Of a stretch of DNA of 64,000 nt, positions 1-63,388 are shown one piece after another. The position numbers were made by a program, and so were the translations under genes. Below the pieces are notes generated by a model. It saw only the letters and a list, made by a program, of their open reading frames with translations. It made no database searches and was not told the origin of the DNA. The DNA comes from Eledone cirrhosa (lineage: Eukaryota), in NCBI GenBank assembly GCA_964016885.1, contig OZ024742.1, forward strand, positions 35,526,001 to 35,590,000. The letters are read 5' to 3'. How positions within the stretch are numbered: the first letter of the stretch is position 1; every line of letters starts with the position of its first letter.

Positions 1-1043
1 ATCGATAATCATGCAAGTGAGGCAGGAATGTTACTTTAAATGTTAATGTATATCTTATATATTTTATGTCTATATATATGTATATATGTATGTAAATATA
101 TGTAGGGTGGAATCTTTTGTAACGCAATGAAGATTTTCATGAAATATAAGAATTTGTGGAGCATATCACGTAAGTTCACATGTGTGTCTATATTTATCAA
201 CTTGAATTTGAGATAACCTTCTCTTTTCTCTTTTTTCTTTTTTCATGAGAATGCATATATACTTATGTTTGAAGTTTTATCTCAGATTTTGCTTATAGAC
301 CTAAGAATTTTTAAACTAAGCATAGGGTCATTTTTTTCACACATTATGGATATGTGTCTCATTCATGAATACTGATATTTACATTATAATACCTAATTCA
401 TAAAAATTGATAATTCAAATGGATGAGACATAATATATTTTTAATATATTTTAAATATATCATCTTTCTTTCTTTTTCTCCTCTACACTGGATGTGATTT
501 ATGTGTCGGCTAGTTTAACTGTATCCCTTCCCTCCTTAACCTCTCACATATACGATGATCATCTGTCCAAAAGCTGCCTACTATATTTTTTCATTTCCGC
601 AATGTATTTCTCTCTCCCATATCTCCTTCTCTCTCTATCTCGCTCTGTTGTTTTTCTTTACATACATATCTTCATCTTCTTCTTTTTTATTTACATACAT
701 CTCTTCATCTACTTCTTTTCATCTTCGTTTTTCTTTCTATATAACTGTCATAACAGTTTCACTACCAAATCAACTTTTTAAATGGAAGTTGCATTATTAT
801 AAGGTATGTCAAAATTATTTATAAAACAGCTTATGTATTGTATTTTGTCTGAGGAAGGCATACCATATTTTTAATATGATATCCCAGAAATATATATAAC
901 GAAATAAATATGGTTTTATAAATATAGTTTCCATTTGTCTAATATCGTAAACCTACTCCAGAAACTGTTGAGTGCTTTTATATCAGTTATAAAATATTTA
1001 CTCGTTGTAACCCAACAATTTTAAATAAAACTTTTGCATATAT
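1..1043 (+). repeat. Upstream pseudo-LTR (truncated by window edge)
   Basis: Near-identical to 3724-4767 (about 8 differences seen by eye). Confidence 0.95.
841..906 (+). ncRNA. Type I hammerhead ribozyme in pLTR
   Basis: TATTTTGT-CTGAGGA-A-GGCATACCATATT..AATATGATATCCC-A-GAAA-TATATA-TA/ACGAAATA; 8-bp stem I, palindromic stem III, predicted cut after 898. Confidence 0.85.
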
Positions 1044-1086
1044 TTTGCTCCAATACCGTTGAGCGCTTTATATTATAACTGAAAAA

Positions 1087-3312
1087 ATGGAATTCTTTAA
1101 GATCTCTTCTTCTCTAAAAGACATACCTCTACCTAGAAACAAGGACTTTATTAAACAACTAATAGATAAATCAGACTCCTTTATAAGGAGAATCAGGTGG
1201 CGTGCATTCCACTTTGATAAATCTAAATCTAATGTAAATGAAAATGTCTCAGACCTAGACAGAGTCTTCAAATCTAAAAAAAATCCACCCCCCAACAAAC
1301 TTTTGAATGATTTTGAAAACGATATAATCTCTATCATACAAGGAGTCAGATTCAAGAGAAACTTCAATGGCCAGGAATATCTGAAAAGCATTAAGGATAA
1401 CATTGCGAGCTTAGAGAGAACAGAGAAGATCTTGGTGAAATCGGACAAAACCAACAACCTCTATGGAGTGGAAAAAGACATGTATAATGGCCTCATACTG
1501 AAAGAACTAAGGAAAAAGTACAAGGTAGCAGATAAGGCTGAACTTGAGAAAATGAATGTTGAGGCATCTTGTATAATGCATGAGTTGGAAATTGAGAACA
1601 AAACACAAACTTTCGTGCCCAGGAAACCCAAGATCAATATGAAAGATCACAAGAGAAATTTTGAAAATGACTTGCCATTCAGGTTGATTGCACCATCAAA
1701 ATCTGACCTGGGTAAACTTAGCAAGAACATTCTAGACAGAGTGATACAGCAAATTAAGGACTTGAATTGTTTACCTGGCTTGACCTTGTGGAAGGGAACT
1801 GGGGAGGTCATTGAGTGGTTTAATGAAATTAAATATAACAATAATAATAAATTTATTCAACTAGATATTGCTAACTACTATTCATCCATTACCCCTAATC
1901 TACTAAATAAGGCACTAAATTACGCATTCAAGCATACAGACCTAACTAGCAATGAAATGCACATTATATTATCGGCAAGGAAAACATTGATAGAATTTAA
2001 TAACCAACTATGGACTAGGGCAGATAGAGATAATAATTTCGACATTACTATGGGATCATCAGACTCAGCTCAGGTAACGGACCTTGTGGGCCTATTTATA
2101 ATTAATTCGCTGCATAGGAAAATACCCGGTGTTACCGGAGGTTTATATAGAGATGACATGCTTTTACTTATTGAAAATAATAACTCTGAACTAAATAAGA
2201 AAAGAAAACAAATTATACAATTTTTTAATTACCTTAATCTAAAAATAGAAATTGAGAATAACCATAGAATAGTCAATTTCCTAGACGTAACATTAAATCT
2301 CAACACATGTCTTCACTATCCATTTCACAAGTTAAATGAAAACTTGAATTATGTCAATTTTAGCTCCAATCACCCCAGATCTGTCAAAAATACTATAGTG
2401 AACTCTGTTCAAAACCGTATCTCTAGAATCTCTTCCAATAAAAATATTTTTGACGAAAAAGCCCAGTATTATAATGAAGCGTTAGCTAGAGCAGGATATA
2501 CTGATAAAATTATGTACATCGATAATAGACAAACTAACCAAAATAACAACAATTTTAATTACAGTAACAACTTTAACAACTATAATAGAAAGCACTACAA
2601 TAATTCCAAAAACCAGAAAAGAAATAGAACTAGAAATATAATATGGTTTGCCCCCCCTTTCTCACTAAACATTAAAACCCACATCGCTAAACTATTTTTT
2701 AATGCTCTTGACAAACGCTTCCCTAGAACACATAAGTATCACTCAATTTTCAATAGACATACTATAAAATTAACGTACTCGTCCACCAAAAATTTAGCAC
2801 AAAATATTAATAGAATAAATAATAGGAATCTAAAACCTAGCCAAAATACCGAAAATAGCCTAAACAATATTCAAGTAAAAAACTGTAACTGTAGAGATAG
2901 ATCTAAATGTCCGCTAAATAACAATTGCTTAGTTAAAAATATAATATACAACTGTAATGTTAAAACTGATTTAAATTCTTTTAATTATGTTGGTTCCACC
3001 TCGACAGAATTTAAACTTCGCTATAATAATCACAAAAATTCTTTCACGGATCCAAATAAAAAATCTTCAACATCGCTGTCAGGCTTACTCTGGCAACTTA
3101 AACATGATAAAGTTGGATATTCGATGGTTTGGAATATAGTCTCAAAAGGGATTCCTTTTAATTCCTCTTCTGAGACATGTGACCTCTGCGCGGAGGAGAT
3201 ATTCTTTATACTAAAATCTAAAAATTCCCTTAATTTACGAACCAATTTATTCAGCTGCTGCAGACATAGATCGAACTCAACTTTTAAATATAAATATAAA
3301 TTTAAAATGTAG
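1087..3312 (+). CDS. PLE polyprotein: reverse transcriptase + Cys-rich linker + GIY-YIG endonuclease (741 aa)
   Basis: RT motifs QLDIANYYSSI, ITMGSSDSAQ, GLYRDDM, NFLDVTL; linker CNCRDRSKCPLNNNC; GIY-YIG IIY...YVGST...KLRYNNH...CDLCAEE...LN; no internal stops. Confidence 0.95.
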   Translation: MEFFKISSSLKDIPLPRNKDFIKQLIDKSDSFIRRIRWRAFHFDKSKSNVNENVSDLDRVFKSKKNPPPNKLLNDFENDIISIIQGVRFKRNFNGQEYLKSIKDNIASLERTEKILVKSDKTNNLYGVEKDMYNGLILKELRKKYKVADKAELEKMNVEASCIMHELEIENKTQTFVPRKPKINMKDHKRNFENDLPFRLIAPSKSDLGKLSKNILDRVIQQIKDLNCLPGLTLWKGTGEVIEWFNEIKYNNNNKFIQLDIANYYSSITPNLLNKALNYAFKHTDLTSNEMHIILSARKTLIEFNNQLWTRADRDNNFDITMGSSDSAQVTDLVGLFIINSLHRKIPGVTGGLYRDDMLLLIENNNSELNKKRKQIIQFFNYLNLKIEIENNHRIVNFLDVTLNLNTCLHYPFHKLNENLNYVNFSSNHPRSVKNTIVNSVQNRISRISSNKNIFDEKAQYYNEALARAGYTDKIMYIDNRQTNQNNNNFNYSNNFNNYNRKHYNNSKNQKRNRTRNIIWFAPPFSLNIKTHIAKLFFNALDKRFPRTHKYHSIFNRHTIKLTYSSTKNLAQNINRINNRNLKPSQNTENSLNNIQVKNCNCRDRSKCPLNNNCLVKNIIYNCNVKTDLNSFNYVGSTSTEFKLRYNNHKNSFTDPNKKSSTSLSGLLWQLKHDKVGYSMVWNIVSKGIPFNSSSETCDLCAEEIFFILKSKNSLNLRTNLFSCCRHRSNSTFKYKYKFKM

Positions 3313-3723
3313 TATAAAATGTAGTATATTTACTTAAGATATTTAACTATTTATGAAACTTGGCGATAAATCTTTCGATTCCTTCAATTTTTTTAAAAAC
3401 CTTTCTGCATGAATATATAATTAATGAGATCAAATAAACTACCCTAAAATTGGCGATGTTCCCAATCTTTTGAATAAATTTTTAAGCTGGATAAACTTCT
3501 ATAATAAATATAAGAGCATTTGTAGAATAAGTTTTGAATGATTTCTGCTAAATAAGGCTTGGTGAACAATTTTGGTTTTGTTTGCTTTTGATTCTGATTT
3601 TATGTGACTGATATGCGTGGCATACTATGTTCTCTTGCGTCCCTAGATACTCTGTGGAGTGACGAAGATATTCTTGGCGTTTTTAATTTTTAATATTGAT
3701 ATCTGTTGTCTATTCTATGCTTG

Positions 3724-5640
<1,917 letters not shown>

Positions 5641-5644
5641 TATG

Positions 5645-5681
<37 letters not shown>

Positions 5682-5760
5682 AAATATATAAATATATAAA
5701 TATATAAATATGTATATATCTATAAATATATATATACATATATATATATATACATACACA

Positions 5761-5844
<84 letters not shown>

Positions 5845-6025
5845 CTTGACTGTCACCACATATTATGAACCTGAAGATTGCGAAAGCATGAAAGTACTTG
5901 TTCAATTAACACTTAGAATTTAATATTCTATCATACTATTTCATTATAATAATTATAATACCATTATAAATTTTAAAGGATTGTAAATAAAACGAGTAAA
6001 TCAGACAAAATTGGAATTCCTCTTA

Positions 6026-6097
<72 letters not shown>

Positions 6098-6251
6098 TGT
6101 GCAGACTCATATATAATCGTGTATCTATTTATCTATCTCTCTTCTGTTTATTCAGTTAAGAGTGACTTCTCCCACAGCTATTTGGAAATTCTTTTATTGG
6201 TGTGTAGTGTACAAATATAAGGTTAAAATTAAAACGTCCCGCTCTAACCAG

Positions 6252-6297
<46 letters not shown>

Positions 6298-6385
6298 TTA
6301 TCATTAGTGCTTGTAAATGATACTAGTAAATACCAACATTATTACCTCCGCGTTAATTGTATGAGAATCAAAAATAAATTCCCTA

Positions 6386-6827
6386 TACAGTAGTCCCCCA
6401 GCTTCGCGGGGGCTTAGGTTCCTAGAGCACCCGCGAAGAGTGAGAAACCGCGAATATTGGACGTGGTCCATAAAAATTCCTATAAACGTCAAAATAGAAA
6501 GTAAATTATAATTAAAAAATGAGGGAGTGTCTTATGCGAAGCGGTGTCCAGTTGGTTGGCAAATACCGTATATTGTTATATATAATACCACGAAAAACTC
6601 CATAAAAATATCGCGGAAGATATTTACGATTCCCTGAATATGCGGTGGTTTCCCAAATCCCGCCGAGGTTGACTTTGCCTTTCATCCTTACGGGGTCGAT
6701 AAAATAAAGTACCAGTAATGCACTGGGTAATTGCTGGCCTTGTGCCTAAAGTAGAAACAATTATTTGTTAGGTTCTAAGGAAAATTCCGCGAATAATCGG
6801 GACCGCAAATGTATGAAGTTTACTGTA
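6386..6827. mobile_element. Tigger/pogo-like MITE with nested SINE fragment (~6640-6765)
   Basis: TA-CAGTAGTCCCCC start, TTTACTG-TA end. Confidence 0.45.
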
Positions 6828-6960
6828 TATAAATATGGTGCATGTGATTCAGTGAATTACTGGTGGTGGTACCAAAATAAACACTCGATATACAGGCAGA
6901 GTGTATATATATAAGGAAAACGATGAAGCTTCGTGTAGTTAGTTTTTTATTGTCTATCGG

Positions 6961-7050
6961 CCTGTTACGAGAGTTTCGTAGAGAATCGGCTCAAGGTGGC
7001 CCATAGAAGTTATGGACCCGACTCCATTACAGATCAACTCATCAGACTAG
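6961..7050 (-). ncRNA. Type I hammerhead with long, branched stem II
   Basis: Minus strand: CTAGT-CTGATGA-GT...GGAGTCGG/CCGATTCT and GGTCCATA/TATGGGCC helices...AC-GAAA-CTCTCG-TA/ACAGG; stem I weak. Confidence 0.6.
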
Positions 7051-7225
7051 TGATTTAACAAAATATGCAGTGCTTATTGTTATCTATGAGATGTTGCGTG
7101 TATATAAACATCGGTCCTATTTTTTTAGTGGATGTGGGCATATGTAAGTGTTTGAGTGCATAGACAGGGCTACTCGTGTGTATATATAGAGATATTTTCA
7201 TGTAGATATGTGTATGTGTTTATTC

Positions 7226-7263
<38 letters not shown>

Positions 7264-7560
7264 ATACCTTTGTTTTTAATTGGGGTGTTTATATATGTGC
7301 GCGCGTACACGTGTAGGTATGGGTGTGTGAGGACCGGAGTGGTCAGCTGGACATTAACAGGATGTGAAACAATGACCGTTCAGTGGGCAGCTGTGGGGTT
7401 AAGTACTGTTCGGTATTTGTGCCATGTTAGGGTGAGCCCGTTTAGCATCAAAACAACATACTTAAATGTCATTACAGATGTTGTTGTGCCGCTGACTAGA
7501 CCCTTATAAAATTATACATATCAATCAATTAATCTATCTATCCATATATATATATATATA

Positions 7561-7760
7561 TATTTTATAGAAGGAGCTTCTACAGGACTAGTACTGTTTC
7601 ATTCAGATGAAATCTTCATAGAGCTTCCTGAAGATTTCATCTGAATGAAACAGTACTAGTCCTGTAGAAGCTCCTTCTATAAAATAAAAAAATGTTTACT
7701 CTGCCATGTATTGAGTACCTTACTTACTGTGGTTATCCCCGACTCAACCCGGGACCTACG
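7561..7760 (+). mobile_element. Fold-back mini-element with hammerhead, (TA)n-bounded (family A)
   Basis: 58-bp perfect inverted arms 7561-7618/7629-7686 plus tail; relative at 57190-57366. Confidence 0.8.
7621..7673 (+). ncRNA. Type I hammerhead ribozyme (family A)
   Basis: GAGCTTC-CTGAAGA-TTTCATCTGAAT-GAAA-CAG(TACTAGTC)CTG-TA/GAAGCTC; perfect 7-bp stem I, weak stem II. Confidence 0.75.
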
Positions 7761-7999
7761 TATATATATATATATATATACACGTCCAGAGCGTTCAATA
7801 ACTGGGTAAGTTATTGGGAAAACGGAGGAGGGAGGGAAGGAAAATAGAAAGGAAATGGGAAGAAAAGAGAAAACAGCGAAAAAGATATATTGTCTTTAAA
7901 GCTTGGAAATATCCCCCCCCCCCACCCATGTTCTTGCTTTCTTCTTATTCTCACTCCATTTTAAGCTACCTTAACTAGCAACTACACAACCAATCCTAT

Positions 8000-8036
<37 letters not shown>

Positions 8037-8037
8037 A

Positions 8038-8106
<69 letters not shown>

Positions 8107-8149
8107 GGCAGAGTAGTATATATATATATATATATATATACATATATAT

Positions 8150-9545
8150 ATTAAAATATAAATATTAATAAAATAGATGTTCTTTTGATCAATTACATTT
8201 TATTATACATATTTCGAATGTACAACAGTACGTCCTCATCAGACAAAATATAATAATACATGACATGATGTTAAATGGTTAAGATTTAATCAAGGTAGTG
8301 ATTAACCCAATAGAAAATTTTACATATATAGTCTAATTATGAGAAAATGCGAAAACATAATAAATTCATTAGAGAATGTGTGAGTAAGAAAAAACGTTGC
8401 TTACTGTAACTGTTCTAAAGGTTTTAAAATGTATGATACTACGATATATCTAGGAAAACATCTCATGAATCATAACAGCCACAGTGATAGCCACGGGGGG
8501 GGGGGGGGGGGATATATACAGAAGGAGATTTTTTCCAAAAGTTAAACGGTTAAATTTGAAAATATTTAATTTATAATATTAGGGTGAAAACTCCAGATTT
8601 CAGGATTATTTGCTGGTTATTTATATATTATTTTTATAAATTCGATAAGTGTGTTATCATTTCTAAACTTCAGAATTTTATGAGGTTAACATTTAAAGGA
8701 TTTGGCTGGCACATAAAGAATGAAATATTATACTGATGATTATTTACCTAAATTTAAACCTTAACAAAGATACCGACATATTAGGTATGTAGAGCTTTTG
8801 AAGTACTTATTGTTATAAATATTTAAATAACTATTATGTATATAGGTAAATATTAATGAGCCAGTATGTTTAAGGTAAATAATAACGACGAAGATAAAAA
8901 TAAAATAAGATAATAGATTGAAGCATGTTAAGGATAAATATACACCTATGTATAACTGGGTGTAAATGTACTAATTATTCTTCAACCAAGATATCAACAT
9001 ACTATTAGATATAGGGAGGTATATATATAGATATATATTAGGTATTAGTGGTGCAGTATACTTTAGGTAAATGATAACAGTTATAATTTTATAAAGTAGA
9101 GTTCAACGTGTTACATTTAAATACATATATATAAGAAAAACAATAATGAGTGCATGGATAATTCAGAGTTCAAAATAATGTCTATAATAACTTTTAGTTT
9201 GGATATTTCTCTATATTTGAATCATATATATAGAAATGTGGTAGGTATATTTAAAAATATATAAAATATAATATATAACTACACACATATTATAATACAT
9301 TATATTATAAATAAGAGATCAAAAACTCATTAAAAATTCACAGTTATAGATAAGTTTCATAAAAATGTATGGATTGGGTATTAAACTAAAATTTAAAAGA
9401 GATCAAAAATGTATTAAAAATTCACAGTTATATATAAATTCCGTAAATATGTAAGGATTAGGTATTATACTAAATTATAAGCATAGATAGGAAGATCTAC
9501 AGTAAAACTCATTCTTTGACATAATCATTGAATATCGTTTAACAC

Positions 9546-9550
<5 letters not shown>
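8150..9550 (-). mobile_element. Non-coding PLE 3'/pLTR remnant between (TA)n tracts
   Basis: Hammerhead near its 3' end; both termini match 60710-60915 in reverse; internal ~85-bp tandem duplication ~9313-9480. Confidence 0.7.
8196..8250 (-). ncRNA. Type I hammerhead ribozyme
   Basis: Minus strand: TATTTTGT-CTGATGA-GGACGTACTGTTGTACATTC-GAAA-TATGTA-TA/ATAAAATG. Confidence 0.8.
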
Positions 9551-9619
<69 letters not shown>

Positions 9620-9771
9620 TACTCTATACGGCGAGTTTCTGCAATTTCCATCTACCAAATTTAATTCCCTTGGCATCAATCCGAGGCTATAGCAGAATTC
9701 CCTTCTTACCAAAAGTACTACACCGTTGGCATGAATCCAGAAACATATATGAGAAATCGCTGTATACTCAC

Positions 9772-9925
9772 CCGTGTATTCGATCTCAAATCCTCTGTAC
9801 ACTTTACTGTTGTCTGAAAGAAAGTTGAGTGTCACCTCATTGGTTTTGGAGATGAGGGGTTCTGGCACAGACCGACCGCACTTCTTCGTTAGGAATTTTC
9901 TTTGGTTCTCCGGTCCATCTAAAAT
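9772..9925 (-). CDS. Exon 3 of secreted CUB-domain protein (C-terminal half of CUB domain)
   Basis: cag|ILDGPENQRKFLTKKCGRSVPEPLISKTNEVTLNFLSDNSKVYRGFEIEYT-G|gtgagt; phase 0 to phase 1; CUB motifs CG, F.SD.S...RGF. Confidence 0.9.
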
Positions 9926-10360
9926 CTGACAGAATAAAGTCTTTGTTTATTAAATTCTGTTTCATTACATATATATTGTTATTATGGTACTTTAGCCCTC
10001 AACTTGCGCCTGATCGACAGAACTATGGCGGAGTCTGACACCCACATTGAACTATGGCGGAGTCCGACACCCACATTGAATGGTTTCGACTTAACATCAA
10101 TTATCTTCTCGGATAAAATGTGAAAGCGATACATTTATAATATTTCGTACTCCACTGTAAGTGGAAATAACGATTAAAGAAATTTTAAGGAAATTTGCCT
10201 CCTATTTCTAGTCGCTTGCTAGGCCATTTATTAACTTACTAGCTTCTTCATACAGATAATTTTGAATGATATATCTCATCATTAAATGTAGCGATGCTGC
10301 TGCTTTTGTTGTTGTTGTTGTTGAGGAGGAGGGAGAGGAAGATCCCCAAGTCAGCCCTGA

Positions 10361-14149: not shown

Positions 14150-14552
14150 ATAATTTCTACTATAGGCACAAGGCCAGAAATGTGGGGGTGGGGATTAAAT
14201 CAACCTCAGTGCATTACTGGTACTTTCTTTTATCGACCCCGTAAGGATGAAAGGCATACTAACCTCGGTGGGATTTGAACTGAAAGGGTTATAATTCTTC
14301 TGCAAAGCAGAGTGTCCGGCGCTCTACCGATACTGACAATCCACCGGCTTCACAACCCATAATAATAATTTTTTCTACTTTTGGCACAAGGCTAGCAATT
14401 ATCCCAGTGTATTACTGGTACTTTATTTTATCGATCCCGTAAGGATGAAAGGCAAAGTTAACCTCGGCGGGATTTGAACTCAAACCATAAAGGGGCGTAA
14501 CTCTTTGCTGCAAAGCATGGCGTCTGACCCTCTACCGATACTGCCAATCCAC
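14150..14552 (-). mobile_element. Two tandem tRNA-derived Nin-domain SINEs (plus a partial copy 13515-13640)
   Basis: A-box-like GGATTGGCAGTATCGGTAGAG, B box GAGTTCAAATCCC, core GCCTTTCATCCTTACGGGGTCGATAAAA..GTACCAG, tail CCTTGTGCC..AGTAGAAA(ATT)n. Confidence 0.85.
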
Positions 14553-14557
14553 AACCA

Positions 14558-16003
14558 TCTACTTATATATATAACCAGCAATTTCTCTGTCTGTCTGTCC
14601 GACAGTGGAAACACGTGCGTAGAGAGAGAGTGAGAGTGAAAGAAAGAGACAGACTACGAGAGGGGGATAGCGGGAGGGAGAGAGGGAGAGAGAGAGAGTG
14701 AATAGACGCTAAAACACGTGCTACAGAAACATTACCTTCCCCTCTCCACTGACTTTGGTCATTGAGGCCGAGGGAATCGCGCTGAGCGCGTCATAATGAC
14801 GTAATGCAGACAGTCAGACATACAGACAGATATTATAAGGGCGCAACGTTATATCTATGTATCTATCTAAAAAGAAAGACTAAGAATTATATAGAGAGAA
14901 TGCTAAATCGCCTAATGCGGTCCCTAGGGTATTGAAAATTTGAAATAATTTTTGCTCAAAACACTCACAGGACCATAAGTATTACATGTCTAAAGTTTGA
15001 AAACAATCGGTTGGATGGTTCTCAAATTTTAGTGAGCTGACAGACAGACAGACATTCACTGTTTTAGATATATAGACTAGCAAAAAACCGCCCTCGGGGT
15101 GGTTTTTTGCTAGGCTATAAAACTGAGGATGTCTGTCTGTGTGTGTGTGAGTTTGAATCCCTAAAACTCGAGAACCACCCACCTGACAGTTTTCAAACTT
15201 TACACATGTAATACTTATGTTTCCAGAAGTGTTCTGAGCAAAAGAAATTTCAAATTTTCAATACCCTGGGACTGCATTAGGCGATTTAGCGATCACTCTC
15301 TATAGTTCTTAGTCTTTCTCTTTTTAGATAGATACATATATATAACCCTTATAATATCTGTCTGTATGCCTGGCTGTCTGCATTACGTCACTTCCCTGAG
15401 GATGTCTGTCTGTGTGTGTGTGTGTGTATGTGTTCGTGTGTGTGTGTGTGTGTGTCTGTGTCTGTGAGTTTGAATCCCTAAAACTCGAGAAGTACCCAAC
15501 CGATTTTTTTCAAACTTTACATGTGTATTACTTATGTTTCAGGGAGTGTTTCATTAGGTGAAAAACTGCGTTTTTTAAGCTTTTTAGGGTTTTTTTTAGG
15601 CGTTACGTCAGACCGATTTTTTTGAAATTGTAACTATGTATTAGTCAGTCTCTTCTTCATACCATGAGCATAGAAAATCCAACTTTTTTTATGGCTTAGG
15701 GCCCGCATTAAGTGAAAAACTTCTTTTTTTCAGGTTCTTGGGGCTTTTTGGAGGCGTTACGTCTAGCCGATTTTCCTGAAATTTCAAGGCACATAAACAA
15801 AATTCATTTTCTTGATCCCCTAGGTGAAAACCTGCATTTTCCCTGCTTCATCGAGGAAAATATTAAAGATTATCCAGCCATCAGAGTATTCGGTTTATTT
15901 TCTTTACATATTGTCCTGGCATGCAGTTTTTCCACGATTAGGTCTGTTGGCAGTCCGCGTTCCAAAATACCTTATCCCGTGCAACGCCGGGTACCACTGC
16001 TAG
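14558..16003 (+). mobile_element. Non-autonomous Helitron/Helentron-like composite element
   Basis: 5' TCTACTTATATATATAA + (TCTG)n; 3' GCAACGCCGGGTAC...CTAG; internal ~230-bp inverted repeats and hairpin 15077-15113. Confidence 0.6.
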
Positions 16004-16149
16004 TAATAATAATAAACTGTTAAAACTAACGATGCCTACCCTATCTGGTTAATACTCGGTAGTCATTGTATATAAAGCGAAGTTAAGGAAAAATGCAAAC
16101 AGTAATGATAATAATCTGGCAGAGTTAAATGTGATGTAGACATTATTAC

Positions 16150-16376
16150 CTCGATGTAATCCCAACATTTGTTGGCGTTCTCTGATTGGGCTTCTTCTAA
16201 TTCAAAGTGCCGGAAAGTTAACTTTACGCGACTTCCGGCGCTTAGTCTTATTCTCCACTCGCAGCGTTCATTGTCGGCATATGTTCCTCTTGTAAAATTG
16301 GGTGATTGTATGATTCCAGTCCAGTTCTTAAATACGAAACCGTTTGTTCCTGAACTGCAGGTAGATTTGACAGGGT
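16150..16376 (-). CDS. Exon 2 of CUB-domain protein (N-terminal half of CUB domain)
   Basis: cag|(D)PVKSTCSSGTNGFVFKNWTGIIQSPNFTRGTYADNERCEWRIRLSAGSRVKLTFRHFELEEAQSENANKCWDYIE|gtaat; joins 9925 in frame; not in the supplied ORF track. Confidence 0.9.
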
Positions 16377-16457
16377 CTGTGCGGATGAAAGAATATATAT
16401 ATGAATGTAGAGTAAATATATAAATAAGTGGCGAACAGAAAAGAGTAAAAAGGCAAA

Positions 16458-16538
<81 letters not shown>

Positions 16539-16645
16539 GTGTGTATGTGTGTGTGTGTGTGTGTGTTGTATTTCCGTAGAAAAGGTAAAGGAAAGAAGAG
16601 TGCTCTATGCATAGTACAGAGCTATTTAATTATACAATAAACAAC

Positions 16646-16684
<39 letters not shown>

Positions 16685-16747
16685 TTAGCGAGAATCGCAT
16701 TTCGGCGGGTAGAAAAGGCGAAACGAAACGCAAAAATCAGAAATAAT

Positions 16748-16925
16748 TGTGTCTACTTTTTGGCACAAGGCCAGCAATTACCCAGTGTATTACTGGTACT
16801 TTATTTTATCGACCCCCATAAGGATGAAAGGCAAAGTTAACCTCGGCGGGATTTGAACTCAGAATGGCAAGGGCCGTAACTCTATGCGTCCGACCCTCTA
16901 CCGATACTGCCAATCCACCACCCTA
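16748..16925 (-). mobile_element. Nin-type SINE nested in the unclassified repeat 16680-17100
   Basis: 16-bp TSD AAAAATCAGAAATAAT on both sides. Confidence 0.85.
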
Positions 16926-17968: not shown

Positions 17969-18117
17969 GGGGGGGGGGGGCATAGATACATACATATATG
18001 CATACATACACAGATATACGCAGACACAGAAGTATGTGTGTGTGCATACACACACATGCATACAAAAAACTCACCAAATAAATAAATATATATAAATGAA
18101 TAAGTTGTTGATTGATA

Positions 18118-18502
18118 TAATTGTTTCTACTTTTGGCACAAGACCAGCAATTATCCCAGTGTATTACTGGTACTTTATTTTATCGACCCCGTAAGGATGA
18201 AAGCAAAGTTAACCTCGGCGGGATTTGAACTCAGACCATAAAGGGCCGTAACTCTTTGCTGCAAAGCATGGCATCAGACCCTCTACCGATATTGCCAATC
18301 CACCACCCTTGATTGATATAATTGTTTCTACATTTGGCACAAGGCCAGCAAATACCAGTGTATTACTGGTACTTTATTTTATCGACCCCGTAAGGATGAA
18401 AGGCAAAGTTAACCTCGGTGGGATTTGAACTCAGAATGGCAAGGGCCGTAACTCTATGCGTCAAAGCATGGCGTCCGACCCTCTACCGATACTGCCAATC
18501 CA
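18118..18502 (-). mobile_element. Two tandem Nin-type SINEs
   Basis: Full consensus twice; TTGATTGATATA duplicated around the first copy. Confidence 0.85.
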
Positions 18503-19162
18503 ATAAAGACAGGAAAGAAGTAGAATAGAAAAATTGGTTAACAAACAGTCCCAACTCTTCTTCCTTTCATTGGTCTTTAACTCGTCATAGACTTTTTGGG
18601 AGGGAGAACCGTTATGGAATATGGCACGTCTCAGGCACATCAAGCATGGCGGAGCCTATCTCTCTCTAGGTCTAAATACAACAGATTTCTTCCAGAAAAA
18701 GAGATGAGAGAGTATGAAATAGAAAAAAACAAGAATGCCAATTATCGCAATATTGGCCCTAGTAATGAGGTGAAAGGCGAGAAATTGGCAGTCATTGAGG
18801 GTTGGATTAAATGCTTCAGTATTTGCTCCGGCTCTTTGCGCTCTGAGTTCAAATCCCGTCGGGGTCAACTTCACCTTTCGACATTTCAAGGATAATGAAA
18901 GAAGTACCACTCCATTAACGGTGGACTGGTGGTATTGTGAAAGAGTTTGACTTTGCGCTATCTGATCTGAGTCCAACTCCACCCCAACCCCTACCTTCTG
19001 CCAGAAGTAACCGACAGACAATGTCAGCAATAGAAAGAGCAATGATTCGATCTAATGAGCTGCATCTTTTCTTTTCATTTCGAGTGCAGAGAGCTGCAAC
19101 GAATACCGCAACATATTGTAGCCACCGTCCTAATGATCCTGCAAATTAGCCGCCTTAAGATA

Positions 19163-19348
19163 TAATTGTTTCTACTTTTAGCACAAGGCCAGCAATTATC
19201 CCAGTGTATTACTGATACTTTATATTATTGACCCCGTAAGGATGAAAGGCAAAGTTAACCTCGGTGGGATTTGAACTCAGACCATAAAGGACCGTAACTC
19301 TATGCGTCAAAGCATGGCGTCCGACCTTCTACCGATACTGCCAATCCA
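19163..19348 (-). mobile_element. Nin-type SINE
   Basis: Same consensus. Confidence 0.85.
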
Positions 19349-21233: not shown

Positions 21234-21397
21234 TAAATGAAATAATTATCTTATGTTGTTTATTACATAACTATATATATATATGTGTGTGTATGTGTGT
21301 GTGTTAAGTATTTCCGTAGAAAAGGTAAAGGAAAGAAGAGTGTTCTATGTATACTACAGAGCTACTTAATTATATAATAAACACAATATAATATAGA

Positions 21398-21471
21398 TAT
21401 TTCATCTGATGAACGAACTAGACGTTTCTGTTAGAATCGTCTAACTTCGTGAAACCTTGGGTAATGAAATA
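21398..21471 (+). ncRNA. Type I hammerhead ribozyme
   Basis: TATTTCAT-CTGATGA-ACGAACTAGACG..CGTCTAACTTCGT-GAAA-CCTTGGG-TA/ATGAAATA. Confidence 0.85.
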
Positions 21472-21509
21472 ATTATATTGTGTTGTTTATTATATTTAAA
21501 TATTAAAGT

Positions 21510-24316: not shown

Positions 24317-24432
24317 CTTTGTCAATGAGTTGATGGGATAAGGTGTCTGTAAATAGAAATAGTGAAACATTTATTTAGGTTACACATTTTAATTACAATG
24401 AAAAGATCAATACAAGTTACTGTTATCAATAA

Positions 24433-25069: not shown

Positions 25070-25071
<2 letters not shown>

Positions 25072-25263
25072 CGAAGGAAATGTGGTAAGGAACCAGATTG
25101 ACCATAACGCACCAGAGTACTCAATACTTAGGGTAGTAGAGTAGGAAATAAGAAAAAGTATGACCCTGACGGCAGAGCTCAAGCCGTTTCGACGGCTATT
25201 TCTGGAGTCCAGAAATAGCCGCCGAAACGGCTTGAGCTCTGCCGTCGGGGTCATACTTTTTCC
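25070..25263 (-). mobile_element. Fold-back mini-element, (TA)n-bounded (family B)
   Basis: ~55-bp inverted arms 25152-25206/25208-25262 plus tail; copies at 30001, 60450, 61701. Confidence 0.8.
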
Positions 25264-30000: not shown

Positions 30001-30199
30001 ATGAGTAGGACCCCGACGGCTGAGCTCAAGCCGTTTCGACGGCTAATTCTGCAGTAAATTTAGTCCAGAATTAGCCGTCGAAACGGCTTGAGCTCAGCCG
30101 TCGGGGTCCTACTCGTTCATATTACCCACTCTACTACCCTAAGTATTGAGTACTTTGGTGCGTTATGGTCCATCTGGTTCCTTACCCCATTTCCTTCGT

Positions 30200-38504: not shown

Positions 38505-38799
<295 letters not shown>

Positions 38800-42382: not shown

Positions 42383-42941
42383 TATGTATAGAAATTTCGT
42401 ATTTCTAAAGAAATACGGTTTTATGAAGGCGTAGCTATGCAAACATCGGGGGTGGGATAACACCCTCTGGTGGTGTCTAGCAGAAGCAAGGGGGACAACC
42501 GTCTATGCATTTCAGGCTTGACTGGCCTTCGTCATGACGGTCCCTCCCACCGCATGCTACCTCTGGACTTGAAAACAGTCGAGAATATATAGTTTTCTAG
42601 CCTGTGTAATACATATTTGTATAAAGCTATGCTTGAAGCGAAATCTTATTTCTTTTTTATAAGTTGAGCCAACTTATGCAGCTTCATAGGCAAATGCGAT
42701 TACTCACCTTATTTACACAGACGAGAAAACTATATATTGTCGACTGTTTTCAAGTCCAGCAGTAGCAAACGGTGGGAGAGACCATCCTGACGAAGGCCAG
42801 TCAAGCCTGAAATGCATAGACGGTTGTCCCCCTTGCTTCTGCTGGACACCACCAGAGGGCGTTAACCGCCCCCCCCCGGTGTTTGCATAGCTACAGCTTC
42901 CTAAAACCGTATTTCTTTAGTAATACGAAATTTCTATACAT
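42383..42941. mobile_element. Inverted pLTR pair with a hammerhead in each arm
   Basis: ~230-bp inverted arms 42383-42610/42712-42941. Confidence 0.85.
42781..42824 (+). ncRNA. Minimal type I hammerhead (mirror copy 42498-42541 on minus strand)
   Basis: ACCATC-CTGACGA-AGGC(CAGTCAA)GCCT-GAAA-TGCA-TA/GACGGT. Confidence 0.8.
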
Positions 42942-43022
<81 letters not shown>

Positions 43023-43056: not shown

Positions 43057-43253
43057 GTATATATATAGTATATATATATATATATATAGTATATATATAG
43101 TATATATATATATATAGTATATATATAGTATATATATATATATATAGTATATATATATATATAGTATATATATATATATATATTTTTTTTTTCATATATA
43201 TATATATAAATTATAAATTCCACAATAATCAAAACTATGTTCAAATCATTTTA

Positions 43254-43302
43254 TTGCTGACAATCGTTTCTTCCAAACTTTCGTTTGGCCTCCTCGGAGC
43301 AC
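43254..43302 (-). ncRNA. Degenerate hammerhead in a (TA)n-bounded island (43205-43565)
   Basis: Minus strand: TGCT-CCGAGGA-GGCCAAACGAAAGTTTGGAA-GAAA-CGATTG-TC/AGCA; core U4>C. Confidence 0.5.
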
Positions 43303-43563
43303 TAGCAAAGTTTGGACATATAATTAACTTCCTATCCAACTGAACAATCATATAGATACATGGATATTAATATTGTCATCAACAGTTTCGTATTTACAGA
43401 GTGGAATGGATGTGACAGAGATTACAAGAGAATTGTATATTAATTGTATAATAATGTATTTACATTGAGCTATTTTTCTTACTGGTAATAAGGTAGTAAT
43501 AAATTACCGATATTTCCTGTTTATAGTTGTATATAGTGTATACATAACTATAAATAATATTAT

Positions 43564-43643
<80 letters not shown>

Positions 43644-43704
43644 TATATATAATATATAGTATATATATATATAGAGAGAGTATATATATATATATATATA
43701 TATA

Positions 43705-53264: not shown

Positions 53265-53603
53265 GTGAATGAGTTCAAATCCCACCGAGCTTAACTTTGC
53301 CTTTTATCCTTACGGGGTCGATAAAATAAAGTACCAGTAACGTACTGAGGTCGATTTAATCGACTTTCCCATCCCTACAAATTACTGGCCTTGTGCCTAT
53401 ACTAGAAATTATTACGGTGAATCGGCAGTATCGGTAGAGCGTCAGGCACCATGCTTCGCAGAATAGAGTTATGGCCCTTTACGTTCTGATTTCAAATCCC
53501 ACCGAGGTTAACTTTGCCTTTCATCCTTACAGGGGCGATAAAATAAAGTACCAGTAATGCACTGAGGTAATTGCTGGCCTTGTGCCAAAAGTAGAAACAA
53601 TTA
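53265..53603 (+). mobile_element. Two tandem Nin-type SINEs
   Basis: Consensus match twice. Confidence 0.8.
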
Positions 53604-54478
53604 TATGTACTATTTTTGTTTGCTTTGATATGGTGAATACCTATTAATCGGCAAATAATCTATATATATATGGTGGGGTAGGTATGGATTCGGGAGGTGA
53701 CCATAGTTAATAAAGTTATCGAAACGTTAGTAGATATATGCATATTTATTATATATATATGTATGTGTGTGTGCGTGTATGTGTGTTTAACATACAATAT
53801 CTATTATTGCATATAATATATTAAATTATGTATATCTACTAACGCATCCGTTTGTCAAACCTTTAACCTAAGAAATATGTTAGAATGAATATATTTGTAA
53901 AAATGTTCCACTTGGAAGCAACAGGAATTACAAAAGGTCTTATGCTGTCTAAACATAAATCCTAAAACTAAAATCCTGTAAATCTCGGTAATACCTTCTC
54001 CGAAATTTAAATAATCTACTTTTCACAATGAGTTAAATAGAAAAATCTGTCCAATATTTATCTGTGGTGTGGATACGTTTGAAAACCACCTCGTGGTAGT
54101 TTTGCGTTCGTCTGTGTCTGTATTTTAATCCTCATTAATCTAAATTAGATTCGGAACTGTTCGTAAAACGGGTTATCTACATCATACGAGGTTAGTTTTG
54201 TTGTTACTGAAAGTCTAAATATGACATTATGGTTAAGATGTTAGCTTCGCAGCCGTGTTGTTTCGGGTTCGATCCTACAATATAATAGTATTCTTTAAAT
54301 TGGGATCCTGATAAACGATCATAGACTGACAATATATAAATTGTCGTTATCTATTTTTGAAAAAAAGAAATTGAAGGAGATGCGATTGCTATTTCTAACA
54401 GGTCGAGGAGTTTTGCTATCAAAAACATACCAGCCGTGACTATCTTTACATTCAGTTACATACTTAGTTTATCTAGAT

Positions 54479-57122: not shown

Positions 57123-57510
<388 letters not shown>

Positions 57511-58083: not shown

Positions 58084-58168
<85 letters not shown>

Positions 58169-58279
58169 GGAGGCGAGTTTTATTGTAGTACAATAAAGCA
58201 ATGCAGATATCGGACAAGAAGATATGTTGATTTAAAACTGCACTATTCACAAGTGTTTAACCTTCATATCATGTCTTCC

Positions 58280-58350
58280 TATTTTATCTGATGAAAACAC
58301 AAATGTTATTGCATGATGATATTTGTTTTTGAAATGCGCATAATAAAATA
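58280..58350 (+). ncRNA. Type I hammerhead ribozyme in a (TA)n-bounded island (58165-58385)
   Basis: TATTTTAT-CTGATGA-AAACACAAATGTTATT(GCAT)GATGATATTTGTTTTT-GAAA-TGCGCA-TA/ATAAAATA; perfect 8-bp stem I, palindromic stem III. Confidence 0.85.
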
Positions 58351-58450
58351 CATGGAACTCTTTTAACCATCTTTTGATCTTATATATTATATATATATAT
58401 ATATATAATGAAAATAAAGCAAAGAAGCCTTCAATACATCAAAAGTCTTT

Positions 58451-58495
58451 ATTAGCCAACAATGTTTCGTCCTATTAAGGACTCATCAGGGCAAT
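58451..58495 (-). ncRNA. Minimal type I hammerhead
   Basis: Reverse complement of 60212-60256. Confidence 0.8.
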
Positions 58496-59769
58496 CAAAA
58501 CCACAAGAAGTACTATCGGCCAATACAAGCCGAAAACTCCGAAGACTATGGAGTGTTATACACTAAAGTATTGGAAGATTATGGGTAAAAATATATAATA
58601 AAAATCACTAAGGATGTGTATAACATTTTGAACCATATTACAAATATAGTCCAAAGCAAAAAAAACCTAGAGCTAAACAAAGGTGGTTATATAGAGCGGG
58701 AACTATATATAATACAATATAATATAATATAATATACTTGTAACAATATTAAAATAAAAATAAAAATTAAAAATTAAAATTAAAAGGCACAATATACATA
58801 TATATATATATGTACGCACACGTACGCACATATACATATACGTCAATACACATATCCATCATTAACAGCACAAATTAAACCTTATTAAGAGTTAAAATAT
58901 AAAATATTAATTTATCAAATAGGGTTTTCGAGTCTTTTATCTGGGTTGTTTCCTAAGTTTTTACTTAACTGCATGTGAGACCTAAGTAAATAGTTTTGTT
59001 TTTGTTAGTTTTAATTTCCGGTTGATTTATTTATTTATTTATTAATACTACTGTGCATTGTATTTTCTGTCTGGCCCTTATTCACTCATCCACATATATG
59101 TCTGTTTACCTACCTTGTAATTATAAATAATTATATATTATATTATGTTCATTATTTTATATTGAAGTTGTTATTGTACTATTGATCCTTATTACTTACC
59201 GTTGATTTTATGTACCATTATGATATGTTAAATTTTATATATCATGTAAGATGTTTATATTTTTGTACCATCATAATTTTGGGTATTGTACAATTTATAT
59301 TTTTTCTCACCTACTCTGTAACTCTATATGAATTGATTTGTTAACTTACATGCCATTATATATTATATATATTATTATATTATTATTATAGTATTATTGT
59401 GACATCTATATTGTTTGTGTAAATTAACCGGAGATTATCTATTATATTATATTATATATTATATAATTATATAGTTTATTATATATTATATGTGTTACTT
59501 TTAATCATTTCATTACTTCATGTATATTAGATATACGTATTATTATTATTTTTATTCCTACTATGCTTATTTATATTTTAACTCTTAATAAGGTTTAATT
59601 TGTGCTGTTAATGATGGATATGTGTATTGACGTATATGTACGTGTGCGTACGTGTGCGTACATATATATATATGTATATTGTGCCTTTTAATTTTTATTT
59701 TTATTTTTAATTTTTATTTTAATTTTAATTTTAATTTTAATATTGTTATTATATTATATTATATTATAT

Positions 59770-59950
59770 GGATTGGCAGTATCGGTAGAGGGTCGGACGC
59801 CATGCTTTCCAGCATAGTTACGTCCCTTTACGATCTGAGTTCAAATCCCGCCGAGGTTGACTTTGCCTTTCATCCTTACGGGGTCGATAAAATAAAGTAC
59901 CAGTAATGCACTGGGTAATTGCTGGCCTTGTGCCTAAAGTAGAAACAATT
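59770..59950 (+). mobile_element. Nin-type SINE inserted in (ATATT)n of the right pLTR arm
   Basis: Full consensus; absent from the left arm. Confidence 0.9.
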
Positions 59951-60211
59951 ATATTATATTATATTATATTATATTATATTATATTATATTGTATTATATA
60001 TAGTTCCCGCTCTATATAACCACCTTTGTTTAGCTCTAGGTTTTTTTTGCTTTGGACTATATTTGTAATATGGTTCAAAATGTTATACACATCCTTAGTG
60101 ATTTTTATTATATATTTTTACCCATAATCTTCCAATACTTTAGTGTATGTACACTCCATAGTCTTCGGAGTTTTCGGCTTGTATTGGCCGATAGTACTTC
60201 TTGTGGTTTTG

Positions 60212-60256
60212 ATTGCCCTGATGAGTCCTTAATAGGACGAAACATTGTTGGCTAAT
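60212..60256 (+). ncRNA. Minimal type I hammerhead
   Basis: ATTGCC-CTGATGA-GTCCT(TAAT)AGGAC-GAAA-CATTG-TT/GGCTAAT. Confidence 0.8.
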
Positions 60257-60399
60257 AAAGACTTTTGATGTATTGAAGGCTTCTTTGTTTTATTTTCATA
60301 ATTCTTCGGCTCTGTTTAATTACATTGAGCTATACCTTTTACTGTCATTTCTATAATACGAAGAGGGTGTTTAACTCCAACACGCTCCAGTATTTTAAC

Positions 60400-60449
<50 letters not shown>

Positions 60450-60451
<2 letters not shown>

Positions 60452-60624
60452 CAAAGGAATTGTGGTAAGGAACCAGATGGACCATAACGCACTAGTGTAC
60501 TCAATACTTAGGGTAGTATAGTGGGAAATAGGAAAAAGTATGACCCCGACGGCTATTTCTGGACTATTCCAGAAATAGCCGTCGAAACAGCTTGAGCTCT
60601 GCCGTCGGGGTCATACTTTTTCCT
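60450..60624 (-). mobile_element. Fold-back mini-element (family B, one arm internally deleted)
   Basis: Matches 25070-25263; a further fragment lies at 61701-61760. Confidence 0.75.
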
Positions 60625-60814
60625 ATATATATATATACATTCTCTCTCTGCCACACACTTAAATATGTGTGCGTGTGTGTGTTTGTATAATATATTATAT
60701 ATATATATATTAAAGAGTTAAACAAGTTTCAATCAGTATATCAGAGAATGAGTTTTACAGTAGATTGATTAAATCTTAACCATTTAACATCTCAGGGTAT
60801 GTCATATATCATTA

Positions 60815-60869
60815 TATTTTGTCTGATGAGGACGTACTGTTGTACCTCCGAAATATGTATAATAAAATG
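60815..60869 (+). ncRNA. Type I hammerhead in mini-element 60710-60915
   Basis: TATTTTGT-CTGATGA-GGACGTACTGTTGTACCTCC-GAAA-TATGTA-TA/ATAAAATG. Confidence 0.85.
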
Positions 60870-60951
60870 TAATTGATCGAAAGAACATCTATTTTATTAA
60901 TATTTGTATTTTAATATATATATATATATTCTCTCACTGTCACACACTTAA

Positions 60952-61588: not shown

Positions 61589-61704
<116 letters not shown>

Positions 61705-61783
61705 AACAAGTAAGACCCCGACGGCTGAGCTCAAGCCGTTTCGACGGCTAATTCTGGACGTTATATATATATATATATATACA

Positions 61784-61820: not shown

Positions 61821-61946
<126 letters not shown>

Positions 61947-62139
61947 AATCTACCAAAATATACGGTAGTGTCCAATCCGTATGAAGAACTCAATGTAATC
62001 CAAATATCATGAAAAAAGATGCATTCACAAATTTTCGATAAAAATCACAGGAAAATAGAGTCAAGATAAATTAATAAAAACAATGAAATTAAAACAAAGA
62101 ACAAGTTCCTTATATTAAAAAATTCATCATTTTATAGAA

Positions 62140-62552
62140 TCAAAAGAAATCGCCCATTAAAGGGAAATTATCTTATTAATAACATAGTCTATAAATGTAA
62201 AATTAGCACTAAGGATTCCACTTATTCAGATATAGGAGCTACGTCTAGCTAATTTAAAATAAGATTTAATACCCACAAACATAGTTTTAAAAATGCCGCA
62301 TTAGCTAATACAATATCCTTGGCTGAAACAATTAATGATTATAGAAAGAAGAATATCGATTACAACCTGACCTGGAGCGTGCTCAAAAGGGCCACCCCTT
62401 ATCAAAATAACAGATACGAGTGTAGGTTATGCTCCCAGGAACTTTTTGAAATCATGAAATCTAAGGATATCCTATTAAATAAAAGACAGGAATTAATTAT
62501 ATCTTGCAATCATAGAATTAGAAGAACCTTCAAATATTATAAACCTAATTAA
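62140..62552 (+). pseudogene. GIY-YIG domain relic homologous to the C-terminus of ORF 1087-3312
   Basis: NNIVYKC..IGATSS*FKIRFNTHKHSF..W.VL..CRLCSQE..LLNKRQELIISCNHR..TFKY. Confidence 0.85.
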
Positions 62553-63252
62553 TATACACCTTAATCTTATATTTTACAAGTTATTATAATTGTTTTTTTT
62601 TTATTTAGTTAACCTATAATTAGTATCTTACTACAGAGAACTTCATAATTTTATTTCCCTCTTACAGCTCTCTTTTCCTAAAATTAATACCTAAAAGTAT
62701 ACCTATAATTTAATTTAATTTCCTGTTATGTATCTAGATTCCTTGTAGTTTAAATAAGATTAGTATTTCTCACTACTACCCTTATCCCAAAATTTTACTT
62801 TCCTTCGTTTTTAACAACACTCTTTAATAACATCTAATTCTTATTTATCACATTCATATGAATTAATATAACTTTATCCCTATAAGTATACCTATCAATT
62901 AATTTAATTTCTTGTTATAGATCTAGATTCCTTGTGGTTTAAATAAGATTGGTATTTCTCACTAATACCCTTACTGTAAAATGTTATTTTCCTTCGTTTT
63001 TAACATTATTCTTTAATAACATCAAATGTTCGTGTGCCTTTCACTATCTTCTTGGCTTGACCTCTTTTCATCCCCAAAGTATTCTTTTCATTCAAAACAT
63101 AAGTCTGCACCCCTCTACCCCTAAATTAAATTTCTACTACTACTATTCTATCAACTTGACCTCTAACTACTTTTCTATTGGTCAATTCAAAACCTGTTCC
63201 CAAACAGATCTTTTATATTAAATCTTTGTTTGTTTTTTTCAATAAACACATC

Positions 63253-63388
63253 TCATCATTTCTGAGGACGGCATGTATATGTGAAGGTATGTATATTTCC
63301 TCTGATAATTTGTAATATTTTTACATAGATCTATATGATATACATACCAACACACATATACATCCCAGAAACGATCGTAAAATGATGA
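63253..63388 (+). ncRNA. Type I hammerhead with ~100-nt stem II
   Basis: TCATCATTT-CTGAGGA-C-GGCATGTATATGTG..GGTATGTATAT...ATATACATACC..CACATATACATCCC-A-GAAA-CGATCG-TA/AAATGATGA; perfect 9-bp stem I. Confidence 0.8.

Follow-up and report, generated by a model that had tools for sequence, protein, structure and literature searches.

Penelope-like elements (PLEs) of the Hydra clade have only one open reading frame (ORF) that joins a reverse transcriptase (RT) to a GIY-YIG endonuclease at the C terminus, with RWK/DKT/CxCX5C, CxxC, and CxH motifs (Craig et al. 2021, PMC8557442). Published Hydra elements already include ones that carry hammerheads and sit in (TA)n, one of them from Octopus bimaculoides (PMC8557442). 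For the Poseidon PLE PAc, both strands of an AT-rich target are nicked and extended, two internal RT starts bound the tail, and a dimer is predicted (Frangieh et al. 2024, PMC11167929). Hammerhead cleavage is dispensable for PAc in vitro (PMC11167929). Nonlong-terminal-repeat (non-LTR) retrozymes reach up to 120,000 copies in the axolotl (PMC7229834; bioRxiv 10.64898/2026.07.22.740005). How PLEs are primed and where their tails and inverted copies originate is an open question (PMC8557442, PMC11167929). We analyzed a 64,000-nucleotide (nt) stretch of the 3.0-Gb Eledone cirrhosa genome (G000:C3:35526001-35590000), which we call the window. It contains a complete Hydra-clade PLE and many short islands with hammerheads, which a preliminary description had taken for PLE-derived, retrozyme-like, noncoding elements. 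We consider it likely that the majority of these hammerheads belong to the 3' ends of at least seven coding Hydra-clade families, whose copies end in (TA)n at one of two fixed points, and that a bulged hairpin 6 to 9 nt beyond each point positions the RT.

Hammerheads and their coding parents

The left end of the window is a complete Hydra-clade Penelope-like insertion (1..4761, plus strand), made up of a 5'-truncated pseudo-long terminal repeat (pLTR), an ORF, and a 3' pLTR that ends at its long (tail) end in (TA)n. About 66 nt ahead of the window, this 5' pLTR starts with (TA)39 and an inverted piece of the short end, 17 nt long. The hammerheads at 841 and 4565 lie within 1-kb direct repeats around the intact ORF of 741 amino acids (aa) (1087..3312, plus strand). 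One is a type I hammerhead with a palindromic stem III in the 5' pLTR (841..906, plus strand), and the other is in the 3' pLTR (4565..4630, plus strand). The ORF encodes an RT with a C-terminal GIY-YIG domain and has YRDD, YVG(ST), RWR, DKT, the CxCx5C linker CNCRDRSKC, the CxH motif CRH, and the CxxC motif CDLC, the last read directly off the translation; there is no GxKF/Y (G.K[FY]) within its first 120 aa. RWR was present in seven of nine related loci scanned, and DKT or DKA was present in eight of nine. Pfam gave no match for this ORF. Homologs of the protein were 28 to 43% identical, with named ones only from Argonauta, and by eye it resembles the Hydra-1_Obim/Ajap proteins. Judged by its ORF layout and motifs, the hammerhead in the pLTR, and (TA)n insertion, the element is a Hydra-clade PLE. 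A Naiad assignment was dropped because the endonuclease is C-terminal.

A first look at the genome gave 39,006 candidates for the RT of this ORF, and all 150 that were scored were at least 92% identical. In a genome sample of 57 evenly spaced 10-kb stretches (570 kb, with 38 stretches drawn from the four largest contigs, which are 54% of the genome), Hydra-type coding sequence made up 1.7% and occurred in 6 stretches. Summed read depth (two contig runs) was far higher over the hammerhead ends than over the ORF, although this is not a copy number.

The preliminary description had listed 12 well-formed type I hammerheads in the window. A strict descriptor found 6 (0.1 in shuffles) and a relaxed type I descriptor found 10 (mean of 0.05 and maximum of 1 in 40 block-wise dinucleotide shuffles), and so the hammerheads are real and exceed shuffled density. 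All 10 relaxed matches, with cores at 849, 4573, 8242(-), 21406, 42787, 58288, 58489(-), 60218, 60823, and 63262, were among the 12 named sites and had the CUGANGA/GAAA/UH core with stems I to III. The other two failed the relaxed descriptor. Site 7621 passed only the strict one (3-bp stem II, U.U adjoining the core), and 6961(-) passed neither (A.A in stem I), yet family searches, which were limited to best hits in the genome, placed both in real families. Copies of the 7621 type had a compensatory change in stem I, from C-G (41) to A-U (11). Since 841 and 4565 are the two pLTRs of one coding element and 58451 and 60212 are two arms of one insertion, the 12 sites represent 10 insertions. The palindromic stems III were borne out, and 42498(-) and 43254(-) are indeed decayed copies, with one core change in each. 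However, 57309(-), in the area 57270-57360 that had been listed as decayed or half copies, has an intact core, and 43900 was not confirmed, being a CCGATGA half-core without family support (two matches). An additional motif absent from the earlier list is at 5871. Among the 150 Rfam matches listed of 202, Hammerhead_1 was found only for 58451 and 60212, at 29.1 bits, which is below the gathering score of 34; at E<=1, the Rfam matches in the window were mostly of microsatellites to microRNA models.

Seven families in the window have coding Hydra-type parents. Nine of the 12 well-formed sites belong to them, as do family B and 57309. In addition to the 841 family, with its intact ORF, the pLTR runs into a Hydra-type ORF for the 8196/60815 family (locus L316), the 58451/60212 family (L242, L253, and L315), family B (L321, with the ORF ending 1.2 kb upstream in L264, L266, and L279), and the 7621/57309 family. 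This last link rests on L305 because the ORF of L307 was not traceable to the 7621 hammerhead. The 58280 family has an ORF link in L439, and 15 of 25 of its loci have the ORF C terminus upstream, in the same orientation. Hammerhead 63253 is preceded by an endonuclease remnant (62154-62537) in the window itself. RW[KR], DK[TA], and CxCx5C motifs are in most of the linked ORFs. With the families of L193 and L036, there are at least nine families with ORF evidence; the L193 family (3500-7100 of that locus) has a UUGAUAA (U3-A8) hammerhead, both hairpins, and an ORF. Therefore, the short islands are 5'-truncated, often inverted, copies of coding elements, and the population amounts to a large radiation of a known clade. 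The PLE origin proposed earlier stands, whereas the noncoding character does not hold for most families. A Hydra-type ORF could be linked to these seven but not to the 21398 (0 of 31 loci; 0 of 11), 6961, 5871, and 43254 families, for which few long copies were examined, or to the 42781 family (0 of 29 loci, in which only Hydra-type ORFs were sought).

The family B parent departs from the type I core. Its full hammerhead has CUGAGAA, with a C3.A8 mismatch or position 7 deleted, in 20 of 26 copies (L260-L284 and L321). Its sister subfamily (L036 and L062) has a UUGAGAA (U3-A8) core. Family B is abundant despite this odd core, with 20 arm matches in the 570-kb sample.

The same sample contained 43 hammerhead motifs, of which 33 have the canonical core and the other 10 UUGANAA, compared with 3 to 6 in shuffles. 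This extrapolates to roughly 1.5-2 x 10^5 intact motifs genome-wide, a rough estimate because matches cluster, and it supports the very large population proposed earlier. Motif density in the window is about two to three times the genome average. The proposed association with (TA)n was also supported. A (TA)6+ run was within 160 nt downstream of 8 of 10 cleavage sites in the window (15.7% of control positions) and of 23 of the 43 motifs in the sample (8.4% of control positions; 13.6% in the same loci). The window is 35% GC and has 109 (TA)6+ runs. Insertion into a preexisting TA tract, or landing pad, fits the literature. Of the 66 merged TA tracts in the window, no more than 24 touch a known family end. 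The sample also included further recurrent families of small hammerheads (L034, L042, L058, L067, L192, and L205), with stem III AGAACT or ACTAGT; they end 150 to 220 nt from TA, and no RCUC hairpin of the kind described below was seen in them.

Two fixed ends and a bulged hairpin

To map the ends, every copy in the fetched loci was placed on a natural reference for its family. The 3' ends met TA at two sharp peaks 80 to 100 nt apart, a short and a long end, at reference positions 114/204 (841 family), 106/205 (60815), 98/200 (60212), 118/198 (B), 113/203 (L036 family), and 107-115/204 (58280). In the 841 family, 64 of 78 copies end in TA, 35 near position 114 and 29 near 204. In family B, 174 of 203 copies end in TA, and in the 58280 family 89 of 93 do. 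The span between the two ends is the PLE tail, which is longer here than the 30 to 40 bp reported.

Many copies are head-to-head insertions, and these pair one short end with one long end. This was so in all 87 incidental cases and in 107 of 111 cases in loci fetched for the family concerned. Independent use of the two sites would give such pairs in about half. Junctions were distinct in 85 of 90 inverted insertions, which are therefore separate events. The apparent half copies are inverted arms that stop within the hammerhead, as in family B, where both arms stop inside stem II. Stop hotspots of 5' ends were near or within the hammerhead in families B, 7621, and 58280.

Each end is followed by a bulged hairpin of the form RCUC-[stem-loop]-UN-GAGY, in which an RCUC/GAGY helix and a 2-nt bulge (UU, UA, or UC) enclose a variable inner stem-loop. 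In the complete element, hairpin 1 (ACUC/GAGU; 955..973, plus strand) is 7 nt 3' of the short end, and hairpin 2 (GCUC/GAGC; 1047..1064, plus strand) is 9 nt 3' of the long end and 22 nt before the ATG. Hairpin 1 recurs within the tail of the 3' pLTR (4679..4697, plus strand). In general, the start codon comes 20 to 70 nt after hairpin 2. The five families that have a complete reference all show the hairpin starting 6 to 9 nt after both ends (10 of 10 sites). Over 15 sites, it starts 3 to 14 nt after the end at 13, 12 of these at 6 to 9 nt, compared with a hairpin in no more than 1.3% of shuffles; both sites that lack it come from mutated reference copies. A hairpin is also visible by eye 8 nt after the long end of the 58280 family and 7 nt after that of 7621 (GCAC/GUGC).

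The hairpin is conserved well beyond this genome. We fetched 78 Hydra-type loci from marine metagenomes and tabulated the 68 that reach the N-terminal region (48 families, 33 to 38% aa identity). Among the 46 with a 200-nt leader, 35 have the hairpin and 21 have two copies, compared with 8 on the reverse strand, 4 inside the ORF, and a mean of 2.0 in shuffled sequence. The search required the outer helix and the first inner pair and left inner pairs 2 to 4 free. Pairs 2 and 3 form in 66% and 77%, compared with 43% and 42% when partners were shuffled (0 of 2,000 shuffles). Forty-one marine loci have 5' and 3' copies. We set aside 22 of them: 18 because they reach a contig end, 1 because it runs on into the ORF, and 3 for want of a hairpin call. 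In 15 of the remaining 19, the 3' end is -4 to +8 nt from a hairpin, often in TA.

Both hairpins stand before the ATG in the published Hydra-1_Ajap consensus, and the adjoining Acropora entry has one; they are not annotated in the accessible parts of that paper (PMC8557442), where the words "hairpin" and "stem-loop" do not occur in the main text or supplement. Rfam gave no match on 16 metagenome Hydra loci; at this sensitivity, therefore, no Rfam family covers the hairpin. No description of it was found in the literature searched, which included PMC3846280 in its accessible part and was confined to sources other than subscription papers, Repbase, and bioRxiv supplements. Therefore, the hairpin appears to be an undescribed cis-acting RNA element of PLEs.

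What the hairpin might do

On balance, we favor a model in which this twice-repeated hairpin is common to the whole Hydra clade and recruits and positions the telomerase-like RT, with its two copies setting two start sites, one for each nicked strand. The RT-endonuclease protein, probably as a dimer, would bind both hairpins, and each would dock one RT protomer and fix the start just upstream. The protein would nick both strands of a self-complementary (TA)n tract, and each nicked strand would prime one complementary DNA (cDNA), one beginning upstream of hairpin 1 and the other upstream of hairpin 2. As a rule, these cDNAs would end prematurely, and their head-to-head joining at short palindromes would leave islands of 150 to 500 bp that are flanked by TA at either end and contain half hammerheads. 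Two TA runs would remain after every insertion as fresh targets, and so elements would stack. Cleavage is predicted for the hammerheads, in many cases as dimers formed by way of the palindromic stem III, although most genomic copies are probably dead remnants. The 42781 family, a noncoding tandem minority, would likely be mobilized in trans.

Several observations sit uneasily with this model. The 5871 reference has no RCUC hairpin, those of the 21398 and 43254 families have mutated ones, and the 7621 hairpin is 14 nt from a broad end. Single hairpins fold weakly (z of -0.2 to -2.7), inner pair 4 shows no covariation (247 of 2,000 shuffles), and 4 of the 19 marine 3' ends are far from any hairpin. 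Among the 111 queried inversions, 4 were short plus short or long plus long. Furthermore, 70 of 90 inverted insertions have a long arm that overlaps the short one. This requires strand displacement or two RNAs, and so the simplest twin priming on one RNA is insufficient. Four families besides 42781 also lack an ORF link.

The hairpins might instead act on DNA, at another step (endonuclease recognition, RNA processing, or translation), or as a stop for antisense copying, in which case fold-back with self-priming, as proposed in PMC3846280, would make the inverted arm. The closeness of hairpin 2 to the ATG would suit a role in translation, palindromes are common at inverted-insertion junctions, and the Drosophila virilis tail is needed for endonuclease recognition, as recounted in PMC11167929. 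However, the same hairpin is at the short end, far from the ATG, and its covariation includes G-U pairs, which fits RNA. If a single cDNA folded back, the second arm would not end at the other fixed site, as it does in 194 of 198 cases. We consider this alternative unlikely.

It is similarly doubtful, and marginally more so, that the islands are dedicated noncoding retrozymes, whose self-cleaved and probably circular RNAs would spread as small units by using PLE proteins in trans. The 42781 family would suit this idea. Its copies are head-to-tail at 315 to 335 nt (with a direct spacing of 315 nt in L288 and partial tandems in L304, L326, and L328), and it has no ORF link. It looks like the only good retrozyme candidate among the families, as an ORF-less tandem unit with a type I hammerhead. 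The 5' stop hotspots and the unlinked families also fit. A tandem array of 176-nt units (L105/L123/L124; G000:C27:7480840-7481503), all of them hammerhead-bearing pieces of the 60815 pLTR, possibly records the birth of a retrozyme from a coding family. Against this, seven families have coding parents, 5' junctions vary among copies, and most copies are solitary or inverted rather than tandem. Retrozymes are expected to lack a coding parent and to form head-to-tail tandems of 150 to 400 nt, and the seven linked families show only this one local array. The seemingly fixed 5' end of the 58280 family, which had suggested a discrete element like a short interspersed element (SINE), is an inverted tail. 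In L459/L460, the pair of 21398 copies at a distance of 1.2 kb reflects local duplication of mixed sequence rather than a tandem element.

That the element itself makes or lengthens the TA runs, by telomerase-like slippage on UA-rich sequence at each start, is very improbable: UA or UAUA follows most start sites in the RNA, the RTs of PLEs are related to telomerase (PMC8557442), a search for empty paralogous sites with a prior tract recovered none (1 uninformative case among 206), and TA was at only 13 of 117 non-inverted 5' ends (a noisy test in which the 104 others include many long inversions or alignment dropouts), but the 60212 long end shares just 1 nt with the TA primer (L242), no more than 24 of the 66 TA tracts in the window touch a known end, and Hydra elements are listed as (TA)n inserters (PMC8557442). 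Element-made TA runs would also be compatible with the hairpin model.

If the hairpin model is right, it would explain the PLE tail and the inverted insertions, provide the first defined cis-acting RNA signal for PLE priming, and account for the hammerhead remnants of one genome, which number about 10^5. PLE priming becomes directly testable with a hairpin that is short, conserved, and duplicated, keeps a fixed distance from each of the two ends, and is beside an intact young ORF. PLE RTs are the closest retroelement relatives of telomerase, and so an RNA element that sets the start bears on the origin of template boundaries. The hairpin could also allow insertion of any RNA at (TA)n. For annotation, many presumed SINEs or unique islands in such genomes may be Hydra ends, for which the hairpin is a cheap marker.

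Other elements in the window and comparison with known systems

The remaining Hydra-type copies in the window are mostly inverted insertions. In the 60815 family, 8148..9549 (minus strand) joins a 3' untranslated region (UTR) arm of about 1.35 kb with hammerhead 8196 (short end) to a tail piece at 9495-9549 (plus strand), and 60710..60913 (plus strand) is an inverted tail piece with a hammerhead arm (short end). A single insertion of the 60212 family at 58405..60402 (plus strand) has a short arm with 58451(-) and a long arm with 60212(+) and its hairpin at 60309-60330; an unrelated repeat of about 190 bp is nested within it at 59769-59952. The 7621 insertion (7561..7760, plus strand) has a short arm (7561-7618), a long arm (7622-7760), and a hairpin at 7698-7716, and an inverted insertion of a 7621-type subfamily, with its core at 57309, is at 57188..57365 (minus strand). 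Family B inverted insertions are at 25070..25263 (minus strand; both arms end in hammerhead stem II; hairpin at 25119-25142), 30001..30199 (plus strand; hairpin at 30128-30151), and 60451..60623 (minus strand), with a single short arm at 61702..61759 (minus strand). The 58280 copy (58166..58387, plus strand) is an inverted tail piece (58166-58221) with a hammerhead arm. A 5'-truncated Hydra-type element (61939..63438, plus strand) consists of an inverted piece, the endonuclease remnant, a 3' UTR, and hammerhead 63253, with a 99-nt stem II, and ends at the short end.

Among the families without an ORF link, the 21398 copy (21304..21502, plus strand) is an inverted tail arm (hairpin at 21342-21362, minus strand) joined to a hammerhead arm, and a tail fragment of this family is at 16568..16648 (minus strand; hairpin at 16602-16622). 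The previously unlisted hammerhead (core 5871) is in a short-end copy at 5844..6028 (plus strand). The 6961 copy belongs to an old family (77 to 83% identity) with a long-stem-II hammerhead (core 7045) and a hairpin at 6883-6902, within approximate boundaries of 6790..7200 (minus strand). An inverted insertion at 43212..43566 (minus strand) has a decayed hammerhead (CCGAGGA core) and a tail piece. The 42781 inverted insertion (42383..42942, plus strand) includes the decayed arm 42498(-).

Two minus-strand CUB-domain exons (9542-9946, profile positions 5-65, and 16066-16629, positions 60-110) suggest that much of the window is intron, and many of the elements sit inside introns of this CUB-domain host gene. 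A SINE-like repeat of about 190 bp, without a hammerhead, has more than 10 copies in the window, including 6654-6765, 14364-14552, 16742-16920, 18115-18502, 19160-19348, 24430-24611, 53418-53606, and 59769-59954. Minisatellite arrays of 26 bp (25599-27746) and 15 bp (27866-29267) have marked strand skew, and further long inverted repeats are at 14797-15390, 38412-38826, and 43704-44158. At 32081-32752(-), there remains the C-terminal part of an ORF from a non-LTR retrotransposon, which we take to be Dong/R4-like; it has motifs of a zinc finger and of a restriction-like endonuclease (only a weak zf-RVT match). Immediately after the 21398 element, 21690-21950 is a degenerate GIY-YIG-like coding remnant of a different PLE type.

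The abundance of hammerheads here is known biology, scaled up. Minimal hammerheads of metazoan PLEs likewise occur in thousands, are mostly solitary, derive from truncated PLEs, form opposite-strand pairs 100 to 700 bp apart, and share the palindromic stem III and the U3-A8 core variant (Cervera and de la Pena 2014, PMC4209133). However, they number about 2,000 to 9,000 per genome (PMC4209133), far fewer than we estimate here. Metazoan non-LTR retrozymes have type I hammerheads, small units, and PLE kinship in common with these families, and 42781 matches them in size and head-to-tail layout (PMC7229834; bioRxiv 10.64898/2026.07.22.740005). They are defined as ORF-less tandem repeats giving circular RNAs, whereas most families here are dispersed, truncated ends of coding elements.

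Poseidon PAc belongs to another clade and starts in an AC-rich stem-loop within its ORF, and no repeated positioning hairpin is described for it in the accessible text (PMC11167929). In vitro, its start sites do not differ between strands, whereas the genomic inversions here pair short with long. The closest system is the Hydra clade itself (PMC8557442), which shares the RT/GIY-YIG ORF, the type I hammerhead in the pLTR, (TA)n insertion, inverted 5'-truncated copies, and a one-sided tail. The elements described here differ in having tails of 80 to 100 nt rather than 30 to 40, stems II of up to 99 nt, and at least nine families with ORF evidence, one of which has about 39,000 first-look RT candidates. 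Even so, the Hydra-clade consensus sequences of that paper contain the same hairpin, which its text, as far as it was accessible, does not mention.

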